The notes under the pieces: generated by a model
The model's database searches: none
What the model was told of the DNA's origin: nothing
What the model saw: the letters and a program-made list of their open reading frames with translations, nothing else
In this document: positions 3,236-36,000 of the stretch, in pieces
Layout of the letters: the number at the start of each line of letters is the position of its first letter
Position numbering within the stretch: position 1 is the first letter of the stretch
Made by a program: the position numbers and the translations under genes
Assembly (NCBI GenBank): GCA_031259665.1
Contig: JAIRLD010000035.1
Location: 1 to 60,501 of the forward strand
Length of the DNA: 60,501 nucleotides
Origin: Puniceicoccales bacterium
GTDB lineage: Bacteria; Verrucomicrobiota; Verrucomicrobiia; Opitutales; LL51
Direction of reading: 5' to 3'

Positions 3236-4213
3236 TCAAACAATTCTTTCCACTAACATTTGCGTTTCGAGTCCCGGAAAGCGTTCGGAAAAAATTTGTG
3301 ATTCCGGAGTAGAATTGAGGAGATGGGTAACCATACCCATTTTGGCGTCCAAATTATCGATTAGAGAAACAAAAATTGCCTCGGGCGTCGCCGGTAGAAC
3401 GGCCGCACCATATTCCAATTGGCCCTGATGGCTGAGAATGATATGTTCGAGGCGTTCAAGCCAATTGGGATCGAGTTCATTTTTAATCCCAGCACGGCGA
3501 ACGATCCGATAACCGAGGACGATATGCCCCTGTAAGTTACCTATTTTGGTTCGCGAAACGGCGAGGTCGCCCTCGTATTCGTCCACCTTGCCCACATCGT
3601 GCAATAGCATGCCCGCTAGGGCAAGATCACTGGGAATATCCGTGTAAAATTTCAACAGCGCAACCCCCGCACGCGTCACATGTACCGTATGTTCGAGTAA
3701 TCCGGATTTATAGGCGTGGTGCATGGATTTTGCCGCAACACTCGTAAAAAACTTATCGCCAAGTTCCTCGAGAACCGCATGGACAGTATTTTTAAGTTGT
3801 GGATTCTGAATGCTTTCGACATAGGTATAGAGTTCCACCTTCAAGTCCTGAGGATCTTCCGCGGTTGTTTGTTCCAACTGGGCATACCAGTTACCCGCCT
3901 GAATTTCTTTATCCGACAGTCTACGAGTAGAGAGAATATCGGGACTAAAAGTGCCTTGGTAGTAGCGGCTCATACCTTCGATGAAAATGATATCGCCGGG
4001 AGTACTCGCTTGGAAAAAGTTAAAGGTGGATGTATTAGAAAAACTAGTAAAACTAAAGGAAGAGAACTTATCGCCGACTTCGATTCTGAGGAATTCGGAA
4101 CCATTTTTAGCATTTCTCCGTTCGATTTTTTTGATAACGACGATGGATTTAAAAACCACCGTTTGACCTTCGGGGATCGTTTTAAGTTCGAGAGTATTTG
4201 AAAATTTTTCCAT
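3236..4213 (-). CDS. yhaM: YhaM-like 3'-5' exoribonuclease (OB-fold plus HD domain)
   Basis: 325 aa with an N-terminal OB-fold-like segment (VVIKKIERRNAKNGSEFLRIEVGD) and an HD-domain signature (HTVHV...LLHDVGK). Length and architecture match YhaM. Confidence 0.7.
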   Translation of the reverse strand: MEKFSNTLELKTIPEGQTVVFKSIVVIKKIERRNAKNGSEFLRIEVGDKFSSFSFTSFSNTSTFNFFQASTPGDIIFIEGMSRYYQGTFSPDILSTRRLSDKEIQAGNWYAQLEQTTAEDPQDLKVELYTYVESIQNPQLKNTVHAVLEELGDKFFTSVAAKSMHHAYKSGLLEHTVHVTRAGVALLKFYTDIPSDLALAGMLLHDVGKVDEYEGDLAVSRTKIGNLQGHIVLGYRIVRRAGIKNELDPNWLERLEHIILSHQGQLEYGAAVLPATPEAIFVSLIDNLDAKMGMVTHLLNSTPESQIFSERFPGLETQMLVERIV

Positions 4214-4267
4214 ACATTAAAAAAAAGGGAAAAAATAAGAGAAGCAAACCAGAAAATTAGTATAAGT

Positions 4268-4765
4268 CCGCTCCGGCTGCCCAGAGGGTTGCGGGAGTCC
4301 AGAAGGCGGAGCCCTCTGGACTCCCGCAAGGAGGCTGTTTGTGGGGCTCCGCCCCATACCCCGCAAGGAGTCACAGACTCCTTGCCCTCCTTTGGCGGCC
4401 GGCCCTCGTCGCAGTCTGCGACGAGGGCCAGCCGCAAGGTCAAGTTTTTTCTCTTAGTTACGCGCTATCCCTGTACAATTTATACAGGGATAGCGCGTAA
4501 ATTAATCTTTTTTTTCTTTTTCAGGCCTGCCCCGCGGCGTAGCCGCGGGGCAGGCCTTTGGGCCCTCTGCGGTTTGATCCAGTGGCATCGCCACTGGATC
4601 AAACCGCAAGGGTCCAAAGGACCAGCCCGGCACTTCGTGCCGGGCTGACTTTTTTTATGTATATTTTTATGCGCAATCTGAGCGCAATTTGCGCTTAGAT
4701 TGCGCAGTTAAAAAAAAGATCAAGCTGCGCGCAAACTCTGTACAAATTACACAAGGTTCGCACAG
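4268..4765. repeat. Composite multi-hairpin repeat, cluster R2 (most complete copy)
   Basis: Ordered hairpins include caaggagtc-aca-gactccttg, ggccctcgtcgc-agt-gcgacgagggcc, a palindrome at 4458-4500, gcctgccccgcggc-gta-gccgcggggcaggc and one at 4569-4607. It continues with agcccggcac-ttc-gtgccgggct, a palindrome at 4670-4706 and a degenerate palindrome near 4727-4763. Confidence 0.85.
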
Positions 4766-4946
4766 CCAAAGAACAACCCAAAAATGGCTGAGTTTATGCG
4801 CAATGCGCAAAAACTCGACTAACAATTGGCCTTGGAAGAAAAACAACCGTTGTCAAATCGCCTTTTGAAAAAACAATTGGAGAAAAAATTTAAATCTTTG
4901 CATTTTTCGCTTGATATAAATTATAGATTCTTAAAATGTATAGATT

Positions 4947-5831
4947 ATGTCAATGCGTAAATATATTAACAGAGTAAGCAGTAAGCCAGCTAATGTCAAG
5001 CTAAAAAATAAAAAATCTTTCACCCTACTCGAAGTCGTCTTCACGATCACAATCATCGGTATCTTATTAGCTATTTTTTTGCCCGTAATGAGTGCAATCA
5101 AACTCAACGCCCAAAAACTAAAAGATACTGCCAATCTGAAAAAAATTGCAACAGCCTGGTACGAATATGCGGTAAATCAAGGCAATTCTATGGATCTTAG
5201 GGAAACCAGTCCAAAAGACGAATGCTCGGATTACGGTATATGGTTTGCTCTGTCTCTGGCTGGCTGTGCCCAAACAACCGGCAAATTCCATCGATCAAAA
5301 AGCTTCTTAAATGACCCTAATGCATACGTCTCACCAAGCGATAAATACGCCTCCGAAGTAGTTAGCGAATATATCGCACGCGGTTCGGATAATACGGAAG
5401 AAAGTGACTTAATATATAATTTCGGCTGGAATCACAAAAATAATGATTTTAATGCCGAAAATGATACCGCTACGTCAAACGCTAAATTCTTTTTTAGCTA
5501 CTGTACCATCGGTAACCTCGATGCTTCTGTTCCTCTCGTAACCACCCCTCTTGCCTTTACGCGCGGGTTAAAGTCTAATGGCACTTGGGATGAAAAATAT
5601 GGACTCTATGGCTCAAAAGGCGGCTATGTCGTCTTTTGCGATGGTCATATAACCTGGTTTGATGGTAGTAAACCAGCAAAATTTCTTCATTGGAATGGGG
5701 AACAATATACAACAGATATTCGACAAGCAATACCAAATGTAGCAAAAATCGGCAATGGAAGCGTACAAACTTCACTAACTGGACAATATGATAATATAGT
5801 TATCTGGGGAAACGGTACCGGTGGTGACTAA
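4947..5831 (+). CDS. Prepilin-type N-terminal cleavage/methylation domain protein (type II secretion/type IV pilin-like, PVC-style)
   Basis: The N-terminus KKSFTLLEVVFTITIIGILLAIFLP matches the class III signal/methylation motif. The C-terminal GGYVVFCDGHITWF resembles the conserved 'F-x-DG-H/S-V' end of DUF1559-type pseudopilins. Confidence 0.75.
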   Translation: MSMRKYINRVSSKPANVKLKNKKSFTLLEVVFTITIIGILLAIFLPVMSAIKLNAQKLKDTANLKKIATAWYEYAVNQGNSMDLRETSPKDECSDYGIWFALSLAGCAQTTGKFHRSKSFLNDPNAYVSPSDKYASEVVSEYIARGSDNTEESDLIYNFGWNHKNNDFNAENDTATSNAKFFFSYCTIGNLDASVPLVTTPLAFTRGLKSNGTWDEKYGLYGSKGGYVVFCDGHITWFDGSKPAKFLHWNGEQYTTDIRQAIPNVAKIGNGSVQTSLTGQYDNIVIWGNGTGGD

Positions 5832-5920
5832 AAAAATACTTATAAATGTTATGTTTTTTGCGAAAATATAAATTATTGTCATTTTTTTATATACCGCCCA
5901 CCTCATTCTTTACATAAATA

Positions 5921-7438
5921 TCAAAACAATTTCCTATCCAGGGATCGATAATGGATGGCCTCCAGTAAATGCCTTTCCGAAATATTTTCCGCTTCCTCTA
6001 AATCTGCAATCGTCCGCGCCACCTTCAATATGCGATCGTGAGCCCGTGCCGATAAGCCTAACGTCTCTATCGCCGATGTTAAAAGTAATTCACAGGCTCC
6101 ACCTAAAGAACAGTACTCCCTCAAATCTCCCTGGCTCATCTTCGCATTCGTAAAATTATTGGCCCGTTTTCGCCGCTTTTGAACCTCCCGAGCCCTAATT
6201 ACCCGCCCCCGTATTACCGCAGAATTCTCCGCCGGCTGTTGATAACGCAATTCCGATGTGTCAATCGGACGCACATCGACGTGAAGATCGATGCGATCCA
6301 ATAATGGCCCACTAATCTTCGAACGGTAACGCTGAATCTGTCCCGGTGAACAAAGACACTCCCGCTTCGAATCTCCTAAAAGTCCACAAGGACACGGATT
6401 CATCGCCGCTATTAACATGAAAGAACAAGGAAATTGTACCTTCGCCGCACTGCGCGATATGGCAATAAATCCGTCCTCCAAAGGCTGTCGCAATACCTCT
6501 AACGTCGATCGCCGAAATTCCGGTAGCTCATCCAAAAATAATACACCATTGTGCGCTAAAGAAATTTCCCCGGGTATCGGATATTTCCCTCCCCCCAGTA
6601 ACCCAACGTCGCTAATCGTGTGATGCGGCGCCCGGAATGGTCGCCTAACTTCCCCAATCGAATTCACTCTCTGACACGAAGAGTATATGGATAAAATCTC
6701 TAAAAATTCCTCCAACGTCGGCGTCGGCATAATCGTCGGTATACGCTTCGCAATCATCGACTTCCCAGATCCCGGCGTCCCAACCATCAGTAAATTATGC
6801 CCACCCGCTACGGCAACTTCTACCGCCCTCCGTAACGCTTTTTGTCCCTTTACATCGGAAAAATCAACGTCAAAATAACGCTCCATCATCTCTACCGTAA
6901 ATCGCATATTCATCTTCGATAACACTACCTCATGGGACAAAAATTGAACGACCTCCTCCAAAGAGTTCGCCGCGAAAATCTCAATGTCATGAACAAAAGC
7001 TGCCGTCTCCGCAGAAACCTTCGGCAAAATTAACTTCTTACGATATTTTCTCGCCTGCATGGCTAAAGCAATACATCCCGCAATGGGTAGCAATTCCCCA
7101 GATAAATTCAATTCCCCAGCAATGATAAAATCATTCAAATCAGGTAAATTTGCTTGCCCCGTGCTCTTAATCACCCCTAACGCTATCGGTAAATCGTAAA
7201 TCGGTCCCTCTTTTCGTAAATTCCCCGGCGATAAATTGACAACAGTACGCGTCTTTGGCATCAAAAATCCATTGTTCATCAGCGCAGAACCTACACGATC
7301 CTGCGATTCTTTAACCGCTGCATCCGGTAGCCCAACGGTGATAAATCGGGGCTCCCCAGGCAATCCCGTATTAACTTCAACTAAAATGGGTATACTTTCA
7401 ATGCCAACAACCGCTCCAGAATGAACCTTCGATAACAT
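5921..7438 (-). CDS. comM: YifB/ComM family Mg-chelatase-like AAA+ ATPase
   Basis: 505 aa with an N-terminal Lon-protease-like ChlI domain ([18 protein letters not shown]), a Walker A motif (GTPGSGKS), a Walker B motif ([11 protein letters not shown]) and a C-terminal Mg-chelatase domain. Confidence 0.9.
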
Positions 7439-7502
7439 GTATCCATACCGCTAATATGTTTAAAAAATGTCAAGAAAAAATATTAAAATAATCTCAATGG
7501 TT

Positions 7503-7763
7503 TCGCCCTCTGGACTCCCCAAAGGAGGTTGCTGTGGGGCTCCGATTATCCAGGGGGGGGCTCCTCCCCCCTGACCCCACGCAAGGAGTCATGGCCTCCT
7601 TGACCTCATTTTGCGGCCGAGCCCTGCGCAAGTAAGCGCCGGGCTCGGCCGCAAGGTCAAGTTTATTTTAGTTAAGCGCAACTCCTGTGCAGTTTGCACA
7701 GGAGTTGCGCTTAACTTGATTTTTCTTTTTTAAATCAGCTGCCCCGCGACGCAGCCGCGGGGG
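7503..7763. repeat. Composite multi-hairpin repeat, cluster R3
   Basis: Contains caaggagtc-atg-gcctccttg, gcggccgagccc...gggctcggccgc, a palindrome at 7671-7713 (ttaagcgcaactcctgtgca-gtt-tgcacaggagttgcgcttaa), a T-rich spacer and ccccgcg...cgcgggg. Module order matches R2. Confidence 0.85.
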
Positions 7764-21000: not shown

Positions 21001-24000
21001 TTAGCATATCTCGCTCTGAGTTCCAATGGGTCACCTGCCCATTAGTTAGGTAGCTCTTCGGTTTATTAGTAAAGTTATTAACAAAAGTATCCGTTATACA
21101 ATAACGCCCCGCATTGACTTTATTATTCGTATAATTGAAAGCATCATTGATTTCATCTTTAAACGGCACAATAACATCAGCTTCTGCATTAGCTAAACTA
21201 AAATCAGTGGCCGTAACAACATTGGTATAAGCTTTTAAATAGGCCGTATTGCTTACGGAAACCGAGTCTGTAGGCTTCATTAGGATATCCCGAAGGAAGG
21301 AAACCAAACTTCCCGCTTGAACTTGGTTCGAATCCTTACCACCACTCTGTGGCCAACCGCTGGGATTACTATCTTGTGAATATGGTGCCAAATTTAATAC
21401 CACCGGTTCCGTCACATTGGTCATCGTCTCCGCCGCATGTAATTGACTCGCATTTAATCCCGTCTTGTCCAAAAATTCTACCGTCGTGTTCCGAAGCGGA
21501 TCAAACGGAGAAACCGGCTTCTCCGCTAGCTTTTGCGTCTTCTCCTGGATCATCTCAATCATCGCCGGCGTCTTGTAATTCGAATTCTCAAAGAAACAAA
21601 GACGATCCCGCGCCATGTAAATCGGTACCTCCATGTTCTTCGTCACCTGCTCCACGTAATTCATCATCAAATCATTCTTCGGTAATTTCTCCTTCGCTAG
21701 CTTATAAATATACCCCTCCGTCGAAGTTTCCGCCCCATCCGCTTTGTACCGAAATAAATTCTGTAACGCATTGTGGCGCTGCACGTCCTTGAAAAGAACA
21801 CCGTCCACTCCCCACTCCGGCGCATCCGTCTCACTCCTCGCCTTCCCCCATTTACACTCAATCCCACTCCCCGTTCCATCGGAATTTTTAACCGTAAATA
21901 AATAGGACAATGGCTTCGTAATGGGCCCACCCGATTTAGGAGTCCATTGGTGGCTCGTGTAGGAACCAAGGGTACTCGCCAAATCGAGTACGCATTTCTC
22001 AATCTCTCCCTTCACATTGTTGTAACGAAATAAAAACTCATGGCTAATCAGCGGACTATCTCCACTCGATCGCACGAAATCGCATAGACGCAACGCGTGC
22101 TCCCCAGTCGACAATTTAACAAACTGTACCGTAATTTTTTCTTGTGTGCGAATAAATTGTACATTATCTTCCTTAAATATAATTTCATTGCCGATTTTTC
22201 CGTAGTTGTTGTAAGCGTATTCCAAAAGCGCAATCTTGCCGTAAACCTCAACCTGGCCTTCGATCACCTTAATCTTATCCGCCGTGATCTCCTTCAACTT
22301 CTTGACCATCTCCCCTAATTTTTCCTTCAAAGTATCCATTTGTGGCGAAATCACCGATACACTGTCTACCCCCTGCGCCTTCTTCGCTTCCTCCTCCTTA
22401 GCCTGATCCTCTAAATCCCAACTCAAACGTAAAGTCTCTAAACCCACTACCATCTCCTCAAACAACGTATAGCAAGTCTCATAAATTTCCTTATCGTAGT
22501 CCGCACCAGATTGATCATTCTTTTTATTTTTGGTCCCTTTTACCTCTTGTACCAATTTTCCAACCGCTAAAGATAAATCTCCACCAAAAAATTCTTCGTG
22601 ACTGATAATGTCGCCAAAATGGTTGTGGAGAACCGTATTGATTAACGCTATGCGCTGAAGAAAAATATTCTGCTCCTCCGAAGAAACTTTATATGCTTCC
22701 ACCTCATCGCGTAACCCACGGTAATACTTCAACCACTCCTCATTACTACTGATCAGTATTCGCTTCGTATACTCATCAAATACTTCCGCCAAAGCTCCTC
22801 CCCCATCCGATCGATACTCCGGATGCTCCCGCAAAGCTACTACGCCTAACTCGTCCTTCTGATCGTAGACCGCAACCGCTTTGCTATAAATATCGAGATT
22901 CCCATTGATAGCCTCTAAATGCTCTTTTATTTTACCTCCCAGTGCTCCGTATAGCGTTCGACTATCGCTGTTATCGATATTATCGATCAGCGTTTCCACA
23001 TGCTCCAAAGTCTGCCCAAATGACTTGACATAAACATCTCGAGTAAGTGCTTCATCGTCGTCTTCTGTAACCATTGCCAAATCTTTCACCGGGATATATC
23101 TCAATTGTGTCCCCTTTTGATACAACGCATCCTTGTTGTATAATTTCCCATCGGAACCGCGAAGTTGAATTACTTTTGAATCACAATAGAGATCATCCCG
23201 CGCTGTCGAAAAATCACCCTCATATTTGTAGAAAAGCCCATCACCTACTACGCTCCCATTCTGTTTAGCTAATTCAACAAAATCATATTTCGTGCCGTAA
23301 ACATAAAGTGTATCCACAGCCAAACTACTGACAAAATACGCCTCCTCATTCGGATCACGCTTTATATAATAGACATCGCGCAATTTAATGAAATTGGGAT
23401 CGCTTTTCACGGCATTCCATTTGTAATACCCGGTTGTTTCGGCACGAACGATTGCGCCCGCCTCATCAGGAGTATAGCATCCAGCAGTACCATCAATCGT
23501 TATCTTTTTTTCTTGACCAAAGTAGGCTTCGGGTTTGCCTGTTTTTGTATCGATTTGATAACACAAAATACTGCCATTCGCATCCACTTGATACAATGAG
23601 ACGAGATTATCTATAGTAACCGATTTGCCATAGGCATCGACACAAAAGGATTGAATTTTGGCCTTGGGATCAGTACCGATATAGAGATCACTTTTTCTAA
23701 CATATTCTTCGCCAATTTTAATGCGATCTCCAAGGTTGCTCTCATCAACATAAATGAATTTAGTCGGATTAGGTATCACAACTGCACCGGTTCCCGTACC
23801 GGTTTTAAACGCATAAACGCCCGTAATTTTAGTTGTCGCTGCCGGACCAACGCATAGTTGCGAAGTCGTCTCGGTCTGTGTGGCGTAATACTGGCCATCA
23901 TCACCCTTCAGAAAGTAACCTTCTTTTACCTCATTCGTTACACTCTGGCGATAGGCAAATTCATAATTTTTAAAAATATTGTCTGCAGCTAAGGATGTTA

Positions 24001-27000
24001 ACGTGGTACTCGCCTTCTTCAAATAAGCGAAGCCTAGAAAATCACTATAGGAACCATCGATGGAAATTTTCAAATTCGTAGTACTATAAAGCTTATTATC
24101 GGTACCCTTTAGGTAGCAATTCTCAGTCGCTGATGTCGCATATGTTTGAGCAGTAGTATTAATGGTGACGTTGTAGACCGAAAATTTTCCATTTTCCGTA
24201 CTATATCCATCAACTTTTATGGCTTTCGTTGCATCATATGTGCTTAAATCTTCTCCCACTGGAACAAGGTAGGGCGCCATGTAAGCGCCATTGCTACTTT
24301 GCAATTCGGTTAGAGCGCCGTCAAATCTCGTCAATTTTCCATTTTTTTTGACAACAAGTTGAAAATCTTGCAAATTATAGTACTGGCCTCCGGCTTTGAC
24401 AGCTTTGGATAATTGTCCTTGAAGTTCCGTATAAACGGGTGAGTCATTTTTTTCAATTGTATATTGATTAAATAATCCCGATCCGCTAACACTTCCCCCT
24501 TCAGCGGGTTTGACCAATACATTATTACTTGTATTCAAGTAAAATGGAATATTGGAGTTATTGTCATTCAATGCCCGATAACATACCTGTCCCGCCTCAT
24601 TTTTATAATTCACTTTTAGGGTGATATCACCACGCCTTCGATCGTAGTATTTGTCTCCTATTTTGACAAAATTTCCACTCGCATTCAACGATACTGTATA
24701 TTGTTCCGTTGGCTTGGAAACCCGCACAAATTCTGTTCCATTTTTCATGAAAATGTTGCTTAATCCCTGTTTATCGAGCGCCAAACCTGATCCAGTTTCG
24801 CCGCTTACATTCACATCATTGAGACCATACAATAGACCATCTTCTCCTTCGACGTTCATGACCTTTGCAGTATATAAATTTTTATCTTTTACCTCTGTCA
24901 CAACTGCATTATTAGATCCGACCACAAATATGCCATCCAGTCCTGCTATTCCACCAGCTACGGTTGCTTCTTTTTTGACCATTACTTTGCCGCTCGCATC
25001 CTTAGTAGGTACGTAGGTATTACCACTACTTAACTTTACATACTCTTTTTCCCCATCTTTTATTTGTATATTGCTGTTCTCAGAAATCGCTATGTAACGA
25101 TTTCCTGGAAACAGTAACTTACCTCCCGCGCTAATGCTATCACTACTCCCAACGGTCTTAATTTTGTAATACTGTCCCGAATATTGCGCGTAAACCTCCT
25201 CCTTTATTACCTGAACTAGTGTAGATTCTTGCAAGACAAACCAATTCCCTGAGCCTGATACTAAATTATAGTCTGCATATAGTTTTTTAGCGCTGGTACC
25301 GCTCACATCATGATAAATTCCATCTTCGCCATGTGCATAAGAACCATTTGTACTTTTGAAGGGAGTCACAAAACTTGTTCCAGTATCCGTATTTTCGCTA
25401 GCACGTATCAATTGTTTATTGGTCGTATCATTGATAAAAAGGTTACTATATGTCACTTCTTCCAAAACGTAGGGCTGCCAACTCGTAACAGCGAGATCTG
25501 TCGCGGTTCCCGTTTTATACAAACCCGTATCCTCTACTTTTGCTATCAAAACTTTACTTGAATTAGCGACGATCATACCATAAAAGCCAACTATCCCACT
25601 CGTTGTATCATTAATTTCTTTTTTAATCTTTAAATTGCCCGACTCATTCTTAATGGATTCATATGTATCGCTAGCGCTTAGCTTGACATATTCTCTTTCT
25701 GTGCGCGCTATTTTTTCATTGCTTCCGCTTATCGTTATGTAACGATCTCCTACTTGTAAAGGTATATTATCGGCTAAAATGCTGGCGCCTGCTCCTACTG
25801 TTTGAATTTCATAGTAAGATGTATTACGTTGCGCATAAAGTTTCACAGGATTTTCTACCGTAGCCAACGTGGAACTTTGAAGGACATAACAAGTATCGGT
25901 ATCCGTCGACAATTGATAATCCGCATATAGTTTATGGGTAGCGCCGGTTCCGCTAATCTGATAATAGGTTCCATTGGTACCGCATACAAAGGAGCCGTTT
26001 AAACCCGTTTGTGGAGCCCTTTTAAAACTATTCGTATACCCAAATTCTTCACCATTCGTTGTCTTAATTTTGACATCATTTAATTTATAATATCCTCCAT
26101 CACTCGCCTGCACATAATCGTTGGCTGGCGTTATTCCTGAACCTGTTTTAAGTTTGAATCCTTGGGCCACGTTAGTCGTTCCACTCTTTTTTATCGGTAA
26201 ATATTTCCCATTGGTGTAGATACAATCGCCTTCGATCGGAGTAACCCCTTCTTCCTTTTTATACTTACTCTCCGGATGAGGAACGTAAAGATATTCATCT
26301 TTGCTATCAACTGTTCGCTTTATGTAGCGGCGATCGGGAAATTCTATGCGATATTCTTTATCGCCGGTTCCAGTAAAATAATACTCGTCCGAATTCCCAA
26401 CAAGAACGTACTGCTTCAATATATCTGAATAGATATACACCTCTTTGTTTTCCGCTGTAAAGCCTTCCGGGTTGTTATTGGCCAAAACATACCGCTCATA
26501 GGTGACAGGTACCACCAAATAGGGATCATCGCGCGTGACATACTTTTCACCGGTGCCCTTCTGATACAATTTCGTACCGAAAAACTTTTTTTCATTCTGC
26601 GTTGAACGATAGAAGAGATTTGCAGGCGTAGCACTAGAACAAGTAATCTGCTCTCCGCTTTCCAAGATATATTTTTTGTTTGATCCTTCGACTGCTTCCC
26701 CTACAATTTTATAGTATGTTCCTTCGACAGTTTTCTTCTCTTCATCCGATTCATTACCGGTCAATTCTGCCTCTTTGTAGTAATATTTTGTGTAAACATC
26801 ATCAACTTTGTAATATTGTCCCTCATCACCGATGATGAAATAGTCTCGATCGTTGGCGAGAGGTCCTTGAAGATCGGGAAGATCTTTAGCGGCAACTTCG
26901 GCATATTCTTTTAGAGTTGCTCTGTAGCAAAATGTGTCATTGCTATTCAAATCGATGTATCGAATGACATCCTTATCGTACACCTTACGTTTTAAATGGT

Positions 27001-30000
27001 AACGTACTATATCATAATAGGTCCCATCTTCACCTAAAACGAAGTAGCTTTTATAGGAATTTGAAACAGGTTGCGTTATCGTATCTGTGGTCAATACATA
27101 GGTTTGGTTACTGTTTTCATTTCCTTCGATTTGTTCAGCTTGGCTGATTTGTTCATATATTATGTTTGGAGCTAGGATACGAACATGTTGTTCCGGTGAA
27201 AGTTGGACAAAGGCAACTTCTTGCTCTGCTAATTTAAAATATTGACCATTACTATAGACATATTGCTTATTTTGCTGCACATCATACTGAATATAGCCTC
27301 CTCTTTCCGCCGGTTCCCGGTAGAGCCAACCCGTATCATTGACACTATGTCCTTGCATAATCTGATTGTCGGATTCGAAATAATGGGGGTGGGAATCGAT
27401 GATTTTGATATCGCCCTGATAGGGTTTAATTTTTTCTGAAAGTGTCTGGATATTGGCATCGTCTCCGCAGGTATAATATGTTTCATACGTCTTAGTAGCA
27501 ACATCAAAAATAGTATTATACTTAGTTCTAGCCGAATTTAATTCGGTTTCACTACTATTCCACTCGGGATATTTTTTTTGCAAAAATATCATGAAACAGG
27601 CCGTATTGAATGCCCGAAATATATTGGCGATGGTCTTGTCTGACGTTATTTTTTGATTAATTGCATCGATAATGTTTTTGATTGCTTTATAGATGCCCGT
27701 ATTCTCATAGTTTGCCTCGTCCGCATAATCACCATTGGATAGTTTTTGTAATGTCTCTGCTAAAGAATCTGCTCCCGTTTCTGTTAATTTTCCTTGAATC
27801 GTATTATAACAATCGACCAATTTGTTGTATTCATTTTTTGCCTCTTCGGCGTTATTGCCTATGGCAGATATATCTTTGGCAACCGTTGTCAATGTTGTTA
27901 AGACAGCAATTGCTTCCTGCGTCGTCGTATTGGTAGGTGGCTTCAATACGTTCCAGAGTAATCGATTTAGCTCTTTAAAGTTTGATCGGAGATCCGTTAG
28001 TTGCTGAAAATTGGCATTGGCACTGCTATTTACGTTACTTTGCAATGTATTTACGTTTTTCAGTAAAGCATTGCCAAAGGTTGAAACCGTATTGGCAGCG
28101 TAATATTTTTGCAAAGTTTCATCGGAACCAAAATTTGAAAATAGGTTTTCAATATACTCATTTATATTTTTAACGATTTCTTCGACACTACCTGCATCAA
28201 TTTGGCCTGTAGGTGTTGGAAAAGTTGTTGCATATTGTGTTTGTAAACCTATTCTTTCTACTTCATTTTCACCGAGATGAGGATACATTTTTTCCAATAG
28301 GAGAAGGTAGTACTGGGGCCGTGCTTTTTCAAAAGCCGTTTGAATCTCTGTAAAACAAGCTCGCAATTTAGTAGCATCTTCTTCTAGAAGACCTGCTGTC
28401 AATGCTGAGTTATTTATTGTTGTGATAATTGCTCCAAATGCGTTATTGATAGCATCCAAATTTGCCTGTGTCGGTTCCCCTACAAATAATATTATGGAGC
28501 TATTAAGTGCGGCTATATTTGTATTGATTGTATCTGCCAAATCTCCCATTTTTTGAATAATCAGCAATGGTACATCTGAAGCATTTAGATCATGTAATAA
28601 TTTATCCAAAGAAATTTGGGAAATGCTTGTTATTTGGGGAATTGTGCCATCCGCTATATATTCTTGGAAGCCATCGTATAAACTGTGCACACATTGCTCT
28701 ACTTCTTCTTTGTAATTATCGAATATTTTCGAAAATGTTTCAAATTTATCCTGTTTTACATTCACATCAATGCCCATTTTGATACTACTTAAACCAACGC
28801 CTCCTATTGAATTTCCAGGATATAGGGATTGGAAAATAGCGTCCAATGTCTCTCCGGAAGTGTCACTTTGGGCAATATAGGCTTTATGGAGCAAAGTTTT
28901 CAAAGCATTTACTTCATCCGCAGGCAAATATTTTTCACAGAGCTCATCATCGGAAGTTTCTAAGTCTTCCCAGTGGCCAAAAATGGAGCAAAGCAATTCG
29001 ATTTCCTCCCGCGTTGCGGTACCTGAACCACTAAGTTTAGGAAAAATTCCGAGATAGGTTAAGGCCTCAAAGCGATACAAATTCTCAATTAAATGATCCA
29101 TATAATCATTGTGTGCCTTGATTTGATCGGAGCTCCACGTAATAGGCAGAACACTAATATAATACGGCGTATTTGGCTGTATGGATTGACCGGGTTCCGG
29201 TTTTTGAACGCAAGAATAGTTATTTTTTAGCGTCTGAATTTTCGCATCAATCTTTAGACGCAACTGTGCATGGATCATTAAAAACACTTCCCGATAGGCG
29301 GATCCAGTGGAATTCTCACTATTGAAAACATTTTTTAAAATCGTCAGGAGTCCCTCCGCAGAAGCGAGACTCGTTTGTAAAGCATTTTTCTGCGTAGCAT
29401 GGGCATTGGGATTGTCGGCATCATAGGCGGCAACGAAATTATCGATTGCCGTTTGGATTGCTCCCGTTAACGCTCCGGATTTGATCAATGTACTTTGAAA
29501 AAATCCCATCATATCATTGTAGGCTTCGACCAAAATACTCATGCTGTGATTTTCATTATTTTTATTAATATCAGTAACCGTAAGATCTTCGATAGCCTGG
29601 AGGTCGACAATGGCAGTATCAACTAATTCAGGTGATGCTGCAAACATCTCATCCGAGAAACTCTTTAGGGCGTTGAGGAGTTCATTCGGTTCCGATCCTA
29701 TCCCCAGTAGGCTATCCGATATCTGGCTTAAATTATAAATATACTCGACTTCCTGGGATACTTCTGTAAAAATTCCTCCCAGTGATGTTCCGATATGGTT
29801 TGTATCGACTAGATCGAAAAGCTTCTGTATACTATCACCTAACAATGCAGCACTCGAAATACCCATACCGCCTGCTTGTTCCAATAATGTTAGAACTTTA
29901 TCGAGTGTGAGTGTTGCGGCATCATTTTTAAACACCGAAATACCGGAATAGGGTAACTCTTCCGATCCTGGAATCGGTTCTTCTCCGTACAAAAATTTTT

Positions 30001-33000
30001 GGATTATTTCTCTTCCATTCGCATTTCCTAATTTTTCTTGCAAAGTATTTACTAGCAACAACTTCTCAATTGTCGCACTACAGCTCAGAATATCTCTTAT
30101 TATCTCTACAACTTCCGGATCGAGAAGATCGTCATTGTCGTCATTTCTTATTCCTTGTCCAAGACAATTATCTAATTGTGTAGAAAATTCTTTTAATTTC
30201 GCCAGGTTCAGTGAAGGTTCAGCGCGAATAGCAGCCAAGGTACCAGCAATCGTCTCATTCCACTCATTCTCACTCATTGCACTCCCTGCCCCTACTCGAC
30301 TTTGATAAGCAGTATAGTTGGCATCGGTACATAATGCAATATGCTCTTTTAATAAATCAAGGTTATCGAGGATAGCTTCTGCGTTTTGTAAACGTTCTTC
30401 GATGATTGTCTTTTGTAGAACGTTGGCTGTATTTTTATTGCCATTTAGCGCGTCCGTTACTTTGGTTTTTGCTGTCGCTAAATTACAATTTTGTAAACCT
30501 GACAAAGCAGTATCCAATTCAGTTTGTGCCTTTGCATTAAAAATAGCTGTCAATTTCTCGCTATAATCTTCAATGGCTGTGGAAACAAAACTCAATATGT
30601 CTGGCAATGAATCCGTACCGGAATTGCCAATTTTAACGGTACCGTCAAATACCTCCAACAAATTAAAAATATCGTGGGTTGTGGAATCAAAAATTTTATC
30701 CGTATCTGTATTTGCTTCTGTTATTTTTTCATCACTCAACGCATTTTTAATCGTTTCGAGTGTCAGTGTCACTTGGTCACCATCGAATTCATAGGGAGCA
30801 ACCAAAGCATTTACGATGTCGTAGCGCGCTTTCTCCTTCATCGGCAAGGCTTGCTGTACCATCATGTTTTTTACTTTAGTTTCAATTGCGCTTTTCTCAT
30901 CATCGGATAAAGTGTGACCAGTGCCGTCAATCTTGTTTGCCGCCGTTAAGACATCAATCCATTCTTCATCGACTTCTAGTTCATCCTTCAATCTATCCAG
31001 GGACAATACAGTCTCCGACATGGTCCATGTAGGACTATCTATTGCCGAACATATTGCTTCATATTGCGTTTGTAATGCTTCAAAAAGAGCTTGTTGCTCG
31101 CTATAACCATTTAATTCTGGGGTCAAATATCCATTTGTTTGAAGCGATTCTACCAGAATGCTTAAAGCTCCATTAAAATCTTCCGTACTAATCTCCGTAT
31201 CGTTCTTAGCGAAAAGATTATATGTATAGGTATCCAAAATACATTGCCAGTAGGTATCGACATATTTTTCGTCATAAGTAACAAGGAGAGTTGTAACATC
31301 CTCAATCTCAACAGATGGATCAATTGTTTCACTTTCAGGATATTTTACAACTTCTTCGTTGATTGCCGTTATTTCCGCATCATCCCAAGTATAATATGCC
31401 TCCGGTGAAATGGTCGTTTCTGTCTCTGCGGTTAATGCCCTCTTCAAAGATGTATCACTTTCTATTCCTTCGTTATCCGTTTGTTGTAAAAATCCTACTA
31501 TCTCGATATCATCGCTGCCAGCTGTATCAATTTCCAAACAATGTTTATCAAATGCTTCGAGTATTTCTTTTAATTGAGCCACACTACTGCTGGAAAAATT
31601 GTTCTTATCGGTAATCCCATCGAGTGCCTTTAAAAACAAATATTGGAATGCTTTTTTGTCGTCTGCTGAACCAAGCCCCTCATAAACTGTTTTTATTCGA
31701 TCTGCCAATGCTCCGCTACTATCCGTTTGCCCCCAAAATGCAGTCCAATTTGTTAAATTGTTTCCATAGGAAGTAATACTTCCATTCGTATCGTAGGTAA
31801 CATTTCCAAAAGCATCTGTAAATAATGTTATTGTATTGGTAATGGAATTTTCTTCAGTATTGTCCCATGTATCATAATTAAACCCAGTTCTTTGGAGAAA
31901 GTAAGTGCTCGCCGGATGGGCTGGTGGTTGTGTTCCTATTATAGCTGAATTTTTTGTTTCCAATGATGTGATTACATCAGTTAAAAGTTCTATCAATAAA
32001 TCTTTTTTTCCAGGTTTTGTATCTTCAGTTTCATTCGCATCATAAAATACGTAGGGATTAGTAGAATTATCACCCGAGAAAAGATATATGGATGTTGAGT
32101 CAGGGGTAGCAGCTATGGCACATAATAGAGCTTTAAACGCTTCCAGTTGTGCCTGCGTACATTGATCATTGGCATCTTTGAAAGCATCCTTCAATCCATT
32201 GACAACCTGATAGCGGAAATTCGCCAGTATCTGATTGATGTAAACTTCTAACTCTTCCTGATCGGTCTCAGTAACTATAATGGTTATATCATTCGGTAAA
32301 TCCGTATCATCCGCTTCCAGAGTTACATTTTGATCCGTTTCCCTAAATGTCGCATTCTCTATTTTTCCCAAAAGGTCTCCAAAAAAATCATTGAGCGGCT
32401 CAAGTTGATCAGGCGTTACACTTCGGTCTGCAGAAGCTTCGATAGCAGTCCTCAGATCAGCCAGAATGGTATCTAGTTTAGGAACAGCTGCATCATCACC
32501 AATATCCGTTTTTGTTAAAGTATTATAAATATTTGCTTTTAAACTTTTTATGTAGTTTTCCTTGGTAGCTTCCGTGTCAGAGTAAGCTAATTCGCCGACA
32601 ATCTTTGCTGTAACTTCAGTCTCGTCATTTACATCAGCAAAAACATAGCTTTCTGCCAATTGCCAGAAGTTTTCTGTATCCAAAAGTCCCTGAAATATTT
32701 CACTAGCATCTTCGATTTTCGATTTCGTTCCGTAGGCATACACCCCCTGATACATCTCCAATAAAGACAAATCTGGCTTGTTGACTAAAGCTGTAACTTG
32801 GGCATTAAGTTCATCCGTAAAAATACTTCCCGTGACATCAATGATGTAGGCTTTTAGAAAATCAATCGCCACGTAATCATTTTCACTATAATCACCTAGG
32901 CGATCGACGATATTAACAACCATTTGATTGTTAAACGATTGATATAATTCGATCTCTGCCGTGATAAGGGATTGTAATTTTTCTACATCGCTTGATGTTA

Positions 33001-36000
33001 AAAATGTTTTGACCATATCCACACCATTCCCACTTTGAACAACATAGAATTCCGTTGCGCTCGTTGTATCCTTGAATTTCCCGATGAGGAACGATTGGCC
33101 ATTTAATGTGACTGATTGAACATGCGCAGTATCTGCCGACAAATCACTACTAATCTTACTCCAATCGATGACGCCATTGATTAATAAATTGTTTTGTTCG
33201 TTTGATGTTAGCTCTTGTATAGTCTTTTTCACTTCATTAAGAGGATCCAATATTGCCTCTATTTTTGCGCGTAAGCTTGTATCTGATATACCATAACTCG
33301 CGAGCAAATTACCTTTAGCAGTAGTAATACCATCTGGAACAGTCGGTTCTGGAGTCTCGGCTTCACTTGGAACAGTCGGTTCAGCTTCGGCTTCAGCCAA
33401 GGCAGTGAGAGCAGTTTTATAGGATTCTACAGCTGCCGCAAGACTATCCGATGATGGAGAAGTGCCATCTAGACAAAAGTCATTGACAATTGTATTGTAA
33501 ACCGATGTAAATTGACTCACAAACCATCGCGAACGATCATAGGCACTGTCGGCTTGTGGGATAACGTCCCCTCCTCCATCTATCCTAGAGCCAATCACTG
33601 GAACGGGAGTAATACCTGAGGTAGGTCCTTCTCCGTTTATAATAATGTTACAGATGACATCATATAATTCCCCAAAGTTTAATACCCTCGGAACACCCGG
33701 CATATCTGTAAAATATGGCCCGGGAACCCTTTGTATATCTGTGAAATATTGACAATTTTCAGGCATAAGTTCTGCTACAGAAGGATTCTCCGTCTTAACC
33801 TCACCATCTACTGCATCTTTGAGTGTACCCGTTTCCGATGTATCCGTATACTTAACGGGTGAAAGAGTACTACCATCGTAGGTAGCTCGATCGATCATAT
33901 CGAATAACTTTAGACAATCCGCTTTTGTAATTGTAAAACTTCTGCTCTCCGTACTACCCAGTTCTTCTTGATCGATAAACCCCCTTAATATCGTCCTCAG
34001 CATATCTAAGTTGGTAAAATTCGTATTCCAAGTGGAGGGTACGATCGCAGACAACAGGTTATATAAAGTTGTTTTTTTACTTTGCCGTAAAACATCAACC
34101 AACCATTGTAAAACCTCATTACCATGAGCCGCCCCTAAATCTGTCAATTTATTATTTAGATCCGTCCCGAATTGTGTGCCACTTTTGATTTTCCCCATGT
34201 AGTCGTCGCCCTCAAGCTTGTTTTCCAATGCCGTTAATTGGCTATGCATCGCCTCAAAGGCAACTATGGCATCAACAGTACTCCCTATTGTCCCATCGAA
34301 TATCTTTAAATAGTTTGCGACTTCTATGCCCTTTAAGAACCCAATGGCCTCATTGTAGGCGCTCGCAACTTGATTGAATAAATAGACATACTGATCCTTC
34401 TCGATGGAAGTCTCATTGTAAATATTAAAATCTGAAGAAAGTGGTGATATGAGTTGTAAATTATTAATCGCATTTGTTAATGCGGTTACCCCGCCTGTTG
34501 AAGTCACGCCGACTAAATCCGCTATGGCAGTATTTAAAGTATTGAAATTCGCCTCATATGCTTCAAATTTGCTCGCGGGATCGTAGCTCGCATTAGTAAA
34601 AATTTCCCTCAGACTATTTACCCCATCGGCCTCCAACTTCGATAAAATACCCTGTACGTAATGCTCATCTCCAACAGTACCAATGTCACTCAAATTGCAG
34701 TCACCTTTGAGCGGTAACAAATTAATGCCAAAATTAGCAATCAGTGAATAACTCGCCTCATCAGTTTCTAAAAATTTAATCAATTTATTTAAAATAACTT
34801 CTAGACTTGTTCTTTCTGATGCAAACGCTTTTAAGTCTTCCAATAGGCAATTATAGGGTGAATCGTCTCCGCTTCTGGCCGTATACCAAGTGGGGTACTT
34901 CTTTTGTTCTTTTTCGATGAAAAATGCAACTTCAATATGGTCTAAAAAGGTCAATAAATCATTGATCGCATTCTTAAGATTTGTCTCATTGGTGATACTC
35001 CCCGCCTGTGTTAGATTAATTTCACCATATATACTATCTATATTCCCTCTGATTGCATTCAATTCAACTTGGATATCATCAAAGACCTCATCCGCTGTAG
35101 CTAGGCCGGCACTTTTAAGGTTTGTTATTAAATTTCCCGCCGGATTTACAAGTCCCTTCAAACCGGTACTGAGTTCATTGTAGGTATCAATAAATGTGTT
35201 GACGGTATAGGCATAACCGCCACCATCATCGAAGGTCTTGGTTGCAAAAACTAAATCACCTAAACTAGTCCCAAGCGTATCACAGTGATCTGAGGTCGAC
35301 AGATCTATAAACGTCTCAAACGCGCTATTTAAAGCATAAACCGATGCGTGAACGGCAGTCATCTGCGCCTTGATGTCCGCTGCCGCATGGGTTAAAACAC
35401 TTTTGGCTAAATCTTCGACCCCCTTCGCCACATAGGTGTCGCTTTTTATCGTCGGGTAAACGTTAGCAAACAGGGTCAAAAGTGAAAAATCAATGCTGTT
35501 GGAACTAATGTATTTCGTTAACTGTGAAAATAGGGAAGTTCCATCCGTATAGGGAATGTGCTCGCAGGAAACGAGTAATCGCTTAAATTGCGATAGGAGC
35601 TCCTCTTTGTCGTATAAATCCGATGTCTTATAGGCCTCAATCGCATTTAAAATTTCCGCAACGGGGATATTGATATCCTCATTGGAATTATACTTGGTCA
35701 CGTGCTCGACGATCCCCTTGGCATATAGATAGGCTCCCGCTTCCTCGTCGTACTCCTTTTCCCCATTTAGACTGACAATGCTCGTATCGACTGTCCCTGA
35801 AGCGTATTCGCCATTGTCAGTGGTACGCATAATTTCATGGTCGACGGCCATACTGTAAATTTTATTGACCAGTAACTGGCGTTTAACAGTATCCGAACGC
35901 CAACCGGCAACCGTTTCGTCCAAAAGATAGGCATTCAGTTGCTTTTTGAATTCCTTAGCTTTTTTATACTCCAAAAACAAATCAATAGCTTCCAATTCCC

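Follow-up and report, generated by a model that had tools for sequence, protein, structure and literature searches.

A Tyr- and Gly-rich, predicted beta-stranded core inside an 8,945-residue protein encoded among type III secretion genes of a Puniceicoccales bacterium

The contig JAIRLD010000035.1 of a Puniceicoccales bacterium (assembly GCA_031259665.1), analyzed here as a window of 60,501 nucleotides, which is the whole stretch of DNA under study, carries on its minus strand a single open reading frame (ORF) of 8,945 codons that lies in a type III secretion operon. This gene spans 26.8 kb, or 2.3% of the 1.15-Mb assembly (88% complete), and the middle of the giant protein that it encodes holds a Tyr- and Gly-rich block, hereafter the core. 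We consider it fairly probable that the core is a folded, beta-strand-rich binding or spacer region of a lineage-restricted, secretion-linked giant fibre. An earlier, sequence-only reading had placed a Tyr-rich beta-repeat region of approximately 1,450 amino acids (aa) here, and its coordinates correspond to aa 3825-5277 of the giant, in frame at window positions 23081-27439. The elements on which the following analysis rests are:

12074..38911, minus strand: giant ORF of 8,945 aa, a single frame within the window
23042..27364, minus strand: Tyr/Gly-rich, predicted beta-rich core, aa ~3850-5290, delimited by composition, low helical moment, AlphaFold2 strands and its conservation in 16 genomes out of the 401 searched in the order
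26993..27046, minus strand: example of the hairpin motif, YFVLGEDGTYYDIVRYHL, aa 3956-3973, with invariant G and Y columns

The composition shifts where the sequence-only reading had put the change. In 200-aa windows Tyr and Gly rise and Leu falls over aa 3801-5400: Tyr amounts to 7-12% through most of this range (with the exception of 5.5% at aa 4601-4800) and Gly to 7.5-10.5% (exception, 5.0% at aa 3801-4000), compared with about 4% and 5%, respectively, in most of the giant outside the core, and Leu drops from 9-13% outside to 4.5-8.5% inside. Within the core the mean helical hydrophobic moment (100 degrees) takes values of 0.49-0.63, versus 0.79 +/- 0.10 elsewhere, a drop of approximately two standard deviations, and the ratio of the beta moment (170 degrees) to the helical moment is highest at aa 4201-5200. 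The same Tyr-rich, Leu-poor central block is present in the orthologues of 9,836 and 9,458 aa.

Furthermore, the reported enrichment of short G-x-YY blocks was borne out. G.YY occurs nine times in the whole giant, eight of them in the core, compared with 0.95 +/- 0.96 in shuffled cores, and the strict pattern G-x-YY-[KEQ]-[IVL]-x-[DGT] occurs five times versus 0.01 expected. The motif follows the consensus [YF]-x-x-G-[ED]-[DE]-G-x-Y-Y-x-[IVL], which is present in many modules of the core; in addition to the example at aa 3956-3973 there are nine copies, with starts at aa 4024, 4058, 4265, 4307, 4358, 4524, 4572, 4835 and 4999. Across eight orthologues of 37-86% identity the motif's G and Y never vary, and aa 3841-4300 alone contain more than 100 invariant columns. 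A hidden Markov model (HMM) built from the ten copies found only its own seeds, a circular result, so its use was limited to a check of flanks and shuffles, where no copy scored above 4 bits in 7,500 aa of flanking sequence or in shuffled sequence.

For structure prediction, AlphaFold2 was supplied with alignments of eight sequences (the window and seven further loci) covering aa 3841-4300 and aa 4470-5290. Across both ranges the models contain almost strands alone, and the loss of helical amphipathicity points independently in the same direction, in agreement with the earlier claim of a beta-rich block. The model of aa 3841-4300 has a mean predicted local distance difference test score (pLDDT) of 45.6 and consists nearly entirely of short strands, reaching 60-76 only at about aa 3901-4000 and 4140-4190. 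The model of aa 4470-5290 has a mean pLDDT of 52.3 and includes two confident all-beta domains:

24755..25444, minus strand: all-beta domain 1, aa 4490-4719, pLDDT 75-91, with two G-x-Y-Y/H hairpins (AlphaFold2)
24155..24472, minus strand: all-beta domain 2, aa 4814-4919, pLDDT 80-87, with one G-x-YY hairpin on E367-371/E374-377 (AlphaFold2)

Domain 1 is the conserved copy of a duplicated module, and its two motifs, at aa 4524-4541 (on E56-59/E64-66) and aa 4572-4588 (on E95-108/E111-117), are modelled as strand-turn-strand. All three motif copies that fall in confident domains are modelled as hairpins with Gly in the turn and the Y-Y/H pair on the second strand. According to these models, the core is beta-rich wherever the prediction can be judged, and the low pLDDT elsewhere is probably a consequence of the shallow alignment rather than of disorder. 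Low complexity or disorder would be one alternative, and a spurious ORF another; AlphaFold2 confidence below 50 over approximately 60% of the core would fit such explanations, although low confidence is what an eight-sequence alignment is expected to give. This alternative is excluded for the parts examined by the more than 100 invariant columns of aa 3841-4300, by a ratio of nonsynonymous to synonymous substitution rates (dN/dS) of 0.31, by the two confidently modelled domains and by frames free of stop codons in 16 genomes, one of them closed, and we give it practically no credence.

The invariant YY pairs on hairpins, together with a Tyr content that reaches 8-12%, also bring to mind a lectin-like carbohydrate-binding array, in which the paired Tyr residues would stack against sugars of host glycans or lignocellulose fragments, as aromatic hairpins bind choline or glucans in cell-wall-binding and YG repeats. 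Set against this, no carbohydrate-binding-module or lectin profile matches the core consistently, Foldseek gives nothing, and Tyr buried for structural reasons would account for the conservation just as well. We regard a lectin-like array as quite unlikely.

The sequence-only reading had further described a recurrence of the motif every 40-70 residues, which did not hold. Successive copies are separated by 74, 68, 33, 208, 42, 217, 48, 263 and 164 aa, within a range of 33-265 aa, and when the positions of Tyr, Gly and aromatic residues were subjected to a Fourier scan, no period between 2 and 400 aa exceeded the maximum of the shuffles. Internal repeats were searched by masked sliding-window BLAST and segment-against-segment hhalign on a four-sequence alignment, which were used instead of an unmasked whole-sequence self-BLAST that had given the identity hit alone. 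The only strong long repeat pairs aa 4300-4467 with aa 4517-4682 (45% identity, E = 5e-24, hhalign probability 99%); the remaining internal matches are 10-25 aa long and centred on the motif, with hhalign probabilities of 50-86%.

Comparison with the YD/Rhs, CW_binding, Kelch and WD40 profiles, the families proposed at the outset, gave no match in any of the eight orthologues at E <= 10 in Pfam, and at this threshold no Pfam family at all was found in more than one of the eight members of either core alignment. Tachylectin (E = 0.0015) and FG-GAP_3 (E = 0.0035) were each seen below threshold in one of the eight orthologues, i.e. at chance level, and searches of the core against NCBIfam and PHROGs, as well as profile searches of PDB sequences with both core alignments, were without significant match. 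Among the known classes considered, a choline-binding or CW_binding_1 array was rejected for want of a CW_binding or Choline_bind profile and of a tandem period of ~20 aa, and an Rhs/YD repeat for want of an RHS family in the Pfam and NCBIfam scans. A beta-propeller (Kelch, WD40, FG-GAP or Tachylectin) was discarded on the missing periodicity and on hhalign, which shows no blade-like repeats of 40-60 aa; a beta-solenoid was discarded since there is no coil period of 18-30 aa and the AlphaFold2 strands, 3-16 residues long, form no repeating coil pattern.

A regular beta-solenoid, beta-propeller or choline-binding-like tandem repeat, as first suggested for this region, is hence largely refuted. 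The G-x-YY hairpin does resemble the aromatic hairpin of cell-wall-binding and YG repeats, the copies in the first 250 aa of the core are only 33-74 aa apart, and the Tachylectin and FG-GAP_3 matches hint at propellers in one orthologue each. Against these stand the absence of any period that beats the shuffles, motif spacings up to 265 aa, the lack of a repeat family in more than one orthologue, the restriction of internal matches to short motif segments beyond the one duplication, and confident domains of 100-230 aa with strands of up to 16 residues, which together make a regular repeat very unlikely. The core is instead an irregular chain of dissimilar beta modules of ~90-230 aa, and its motif is a choline-binding/YG-type hairpin in shape only, scattered through these modules.

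The core is confined to a narrow lineage. When aa 3900-5099 were searched exhaustively with HMMER against 1.84 billion representative proteins, nine matched, all of them collinear giants or fragments of this family, and a word-indexed protein search found three partial giants annotated as proteins of Puniceicoccales metagenome-assembled genomes (MAGs), with 78, 57 and 54% identity; the related records come from Puniceicoccales MAGs and one 'uncultured Verrucomicrobia' MAG. A six-frame search of 401 genomes of the order located the core in 16 genomes, including 10 of 13 of the same genus and 2 of 3 of a sister genus, and thereby 12 of 16 genomes of the family (f1), with weak core matches in three genomes of a second family (f37). 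All matches in the 16 genomes are open frames, the longest orthologous frames measuring 9,836, 9,458, 8,378 and 8,280 aa. The genomes that carry the core are small (0.6-1.15 Mb), and in the closed 878-kb genome G003 the gene takes up ~29.5 kb, or 3.4%. A scan of JGI metagenome contigs gave no relative, and a search of open-access papers found no description of the giant, nor of type III secretion in Nucleococcus-type symbionts. Candidatus Nucleococcus, an intranuclear symbiont of termite protists, is reported to have a genome of ~1 Mb and to fall into a termite cluster of the Verrucomicrobia (PMC8204192), and we infer that the genome studied here belongs to this cluster.

Comparison within the lineage gives a view of how the core was assembled. 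The second family includes a small genome (G064) with a collinear giant of 5,129 aa located 3' of sctV (L032, G064:C19:26000-45900), and the following modules are distinguished by this and other comparisons:

26006..26725, minus strand: N-terminal end module of the core (aa 4063-4302), one of its two oldest, common with the G064 giant (BLASTP against G064 aa 574-850, E = 1e-11)
25511..26014, minus strand: copy 1 of the duplicated module, aa 4300-4467 (hhalign 99% and 45% identity with copy 2)
24866..25363, minus strand: duplicated module, copy 2, aa 4517-4682, which aligns best to single-copy relatives
23042..23464, minus strand: C-terminal end module of the core (aa 5150-5290), the other of its two oldest, common with the G064 giant (sequence comparison)

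The G064 giant shares its N-terminal 190 aa and last 1,500 aa with the giant described here (28-38% identity), and their retention marks these as ancient functional parts of the protein. Around the core only aa 4063-4302 and aa 5150-5584 are shared, of which the former module also gives the weak matches in the three f37 genomes, and the G064 giant has a Tyr-rich block of its own, unrelated in sequence and bearing a motif of this type; no match between this separate block and the core alignments emerged from hhalign. Since only the two end modules are shared, the core looks like a pair of old ends with lineage-specific accretion between them. The duplication of the ~170-aa module occurs only in the sublineage G000/G199/G091, being common to these three species-level genomes, and copy 1 is absent from P0003 and most other loci. 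With its copies only 45% identical and three such genomes sharing it, the duplication is an old event, not a recent one. P0003 and P0004 carry an extra insert of 150-175 aa at aa 4074-4088, a distant paralogue of aa 4815-4904 (E 1e-6 to 1e-3), so that the ~90-aa unit of domain 2 is what their sublineage has duplicated. Insertions fall at the hot spots aa 4074-4088, 4826 and 4901, and the short inserts that some relatives have at the latter two look helical by eye. The core has become longer as whole modules were duplicated and inserted at a few hot spots.

The core is under purifying selection, with a Nei-Gojobori dN/dS against the closest relative of 0.31, compared with 0.48 in the N-terminal flank and 0.23 in the next 580 aa. 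Identity to P0003/P0004 is 57-74% in the core versus 45-64% in aa 1400-3800. As a separate observation, the synonymous rate (dS) against the closest orthologue (L021, G199) is a mosaic along the gene: values of 0.03-0.06 at aa 400-1300 contrast with 0.35-0.53 at aa 2800-3100 and across the greater part of aa 3700-5800, where dS is lower only at aa 3101-3400 (0.13) and aa 4901-5200 (0.18) in between. Such a pattern points to a recent exchange of gene segments between lineages, by recombination or gene conversion.

The neighbourhood and the C-terminal part of the giant link it to type III secretion. In the window sctY and sctV are followed by a 413-aa ORF, then by the giant, and this in turn by an LcrH-like chaperone gene and two genes for putative translocators, as follows:

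42348..42752, minus strand: sctY-like chaperone gene (NF052415, 72.5 bits, cut-off 70)
40246..42351, minus strand: sctV, type III export gate, 5' of the giant (Pfam FHIPEP, E = 2e-226; TIGR01399 hrcV, 878 bits, cut-off 692)
38996..40237, minus strand: 413-aa ORF between sctV and the giant, no family match
13550..13768, minus strand: SseB/EspA-like segment of the giant, aa 8382-8454 (NCBIfam translocon_SseB, E = 1.6e-5; Pfam EspA, E = 5e-4)
13094..13264, minus strand: 57-aa hydrophobic stretch of the giant, aa 8550-8606, candidate transmembrane hairpin, with equivalent runs in the G003 orthologue
11562..12158, minus strand: LcrH/SycD-type (class II) tetratricopeptide repeat (TPR) chaperone gene directly 3' of the giant (TIGR02552, 96.3 bits, cut-off 104.8)
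9511..11575, minus strand: two ORFs (397 and 285 aa) placed where translocator genes would be expected, no family match

The giant is thus encoded together with injectisome genes and adjoins an LcrH-like chaperone gene, a setting typical of type III substrates. The chaperone gene is matched by the SicA, SscA and SscB models as well, and by Pfam TPR_3 at 28.0 bits, above the cut-off of 20.7. The 397-aa ORF contains Gly/Ala-rich hydrophobic stretches, and from position and such stretches the two 3' ORFs are putative translocators; the C-terminal 668 aa of the giant have no similarity to either. SctJ, SctU and two secretins are encoded on other contigs of the same assembly. In all four relatives that were checked (G003, G069, G112 and G064, from three genera and two families) the giant lies directly 3' of sctV. 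The SseB-like segment scores weakly in the window, with 24.9 bits versus a curated cut-off of 155 and, for Pfam EspA, 20.4 versus 23.4 bits, and the SseB match recurs in four of four orthologues of 35-59% identity, with a best E of 1.1e-7. A profile search of PDB sequences with the C-terminal alignment gave nothing significant.

The flanks had been described as roughly 3,800 N-terminal and 3,200 C-terminal residues of helical-looking sequence, poor in Pro and Gly. This description calls for correction, as the C-terminal flank measures ~3,670 aa and the paucity of Pro and Gly is not uniform: Pro makes up 13% of the first 200 aa of the giant, and a Gly/Trp-rich island lies at aa ~5900-6160. On direct inspection the N-terminus has no Sec-type hydrophobic signal. 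Just past the core, the region around aa 5526-5588 is helical-looking by composition; at the same place (window ~22150-22335) there is a weak match to phrog_31241, a family of unknown function (E = 7e-5). A second Gly/Tyr-rich island, at aa ~7400-7720 (window 15752-16714), contains back-to-back hairpin-like motifs, ADGKTYYSSGGGFFDSNGTEVGYDGEGFLLDEEGARIV, which resemble cell-wall-binding repeats more than any motif of the core does. This island gave no match in Pfam and PHROG searches and falls in the part best conserved with the second-family giant of G064. The orthologue of the sister genus (G069) has at aa ~6300-6650 a low-complexity stretch of ~350 aa with 37% Ala, which is absent from the giant described here.

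Taken together, we propose that the injectisome of this bacterium, a Puniceicoccales member that would live in obligate association with a host in the termite gut, would export the giant or serve as the site of its assembly. The largely helical flanks of the giant would make up a long rod; once outside the cell, the Tyr-rich beta block would fold again into a rigid region with an aromatic surface, which may bind a structure of the presumed protist host or may space other parts of the fibre. A ligand-binding or spacer role in a long, mainly helical fibre, as the sequence-only reading had suggested, is plausible. The beta block is among the better-conserved parts of the giant, yet without relatives outside the family, which makes it a candidate for the host-recognizing part.

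Several points weigh against this proposal. Most of the fold is left unpredicted by the low-confidence models, the core alignments hold eight sequences only, and Foldseek comparison of the whole 821-aa model with PDB and BFVD gave template modelling scores (TM-scores) below 0.1; no fold class, ligand or partner could be assigned. The Foldseek matches to coronavirus spikes and phage fibres were set aside as generic for extended, beta-rich models of low confidence. The helicity of the flanks is read from composition and amphipathic periodicity, and the SseB and LcrH matches are both below the curated cut-offs. Moreover, substrates pass through the type III channel in an unfolded state, and domains with a stable fold can obstruct it; with 8,945 aa, the giant would far exceed any known type III substrate.

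The main rival to export starts from this last difficulty. With the same structure, the giant could be a cytoplasmic or inner-membrane-anchored scaffold that is held by its 57-aa hydrophobic stretch and never leaves the cell, the beta block then being an internal spacer or oligomerization region. A protein of this size with stably folded beta domains would not pass easily through a type III apparatus, the possible hydrophobic anchor lies near the C-terminus, and position in an operon is by itself no proof of export. What speaks for export, on the other hand, is that the gene lies between sctV and a translocator-type chaperone gene in three genera of two families and that all four orthologues have the SseB-like segment; the upkeep of a gene of 27-30 kb in such small genomes would in addition argue for a host-facing role. 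On balance, we see the non-exported scaffold as a doubtful but real contender, and the secretion-linked fibre with its folded, beta-rich core as the better account.

A bolder version of the exported fibre can also be outlined. The giant may be an injectisome tip or filament protein derived from EspA/SseB and enlarged approximately 45-fold, which an obligate symbiont of protists in the termite gut, possibly an intranuclear one, would export as a fibre of hundreds of nm, with the Tyr-rich block as a host-binding head diversified by module duplication. We put this forward as an unlikely, speculative extension. If true, no known type III substrate would come near the giant in size, and a symbiont would be tethered to a host structure in a new way.

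Whichever reading applies, a genome of 0.6-1.15 Mb has normally lost whatever is not essential, yet this lineage retains so long a gene in its type III operon. If the giant is exported, it stretches present ideas of what an injectisome can handle and offers a handle on the interaction of Nucleococcus-type symbionts with their protists; if it is not, the core still represents a set of new beta-domain families.

Among known systems, compared here by name, CW_binding_1 (PF01473), YG/glucan-binding repeats and the C-terminal repeats of large clostridial toxins share with the core a short aromatic hairpin with Gly in or near the turn and Tyr-Tyr on the next strand. Cell-wall- and choline-binding repeats are ~20 aa long, strictly tandem and stacked into a solenoid, whereas the hairpins of the giant lie 33-265 aa apart within unrelated modules, with no period and no profile match. 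The type I secreted RTX adhesins (such as LapA, SiiE and the Marinomonas ice-binding adhesin) are similar in their great size, long extender, distinct beta-rich region that may bind a ligand, and variable number of modules. Their rods are made of tandem Ig-like beta-sandwich repeats with a C-terminal RTX/type I secretion signal; in contrast, the giant is mostly helical-looking, is encoded in a type III operon and has no Ig-like or RTX profile in Pfam or NCBIfam. SctE-class translocators and chlamydial Inc proteins with a bilobed hydrophobic domain compare with the giant in its 57-aa run fit for a two-helix membrane hairpin, in the adjoining class II chaperone gene and in an organism of the Planctomycetes-Verrucomicrobia-Chlamydiae (PVC) superphylum; as differences, the giant reaches its hydrophobic stretch only after 8,550 aa, and there is no similarity to translocator profiles or to the neighbouring ORFs. 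EspA and SseB themselves measure ~190 aa, and the giant differs from them in being ~45 times longer and in having a hydrophobic stretch and a 1,450-aa beta block. It recalls them in the weakly scoring SseB/EspA-like segment followed by an SscA/LcrH-like chaperone gene and two small genes, and this succession of giant, chaperone gene and two small ORFs resembles the order in Salmonella pathogenicity island 2 (SPI-2), sseB-sscA-sseC-sseD.

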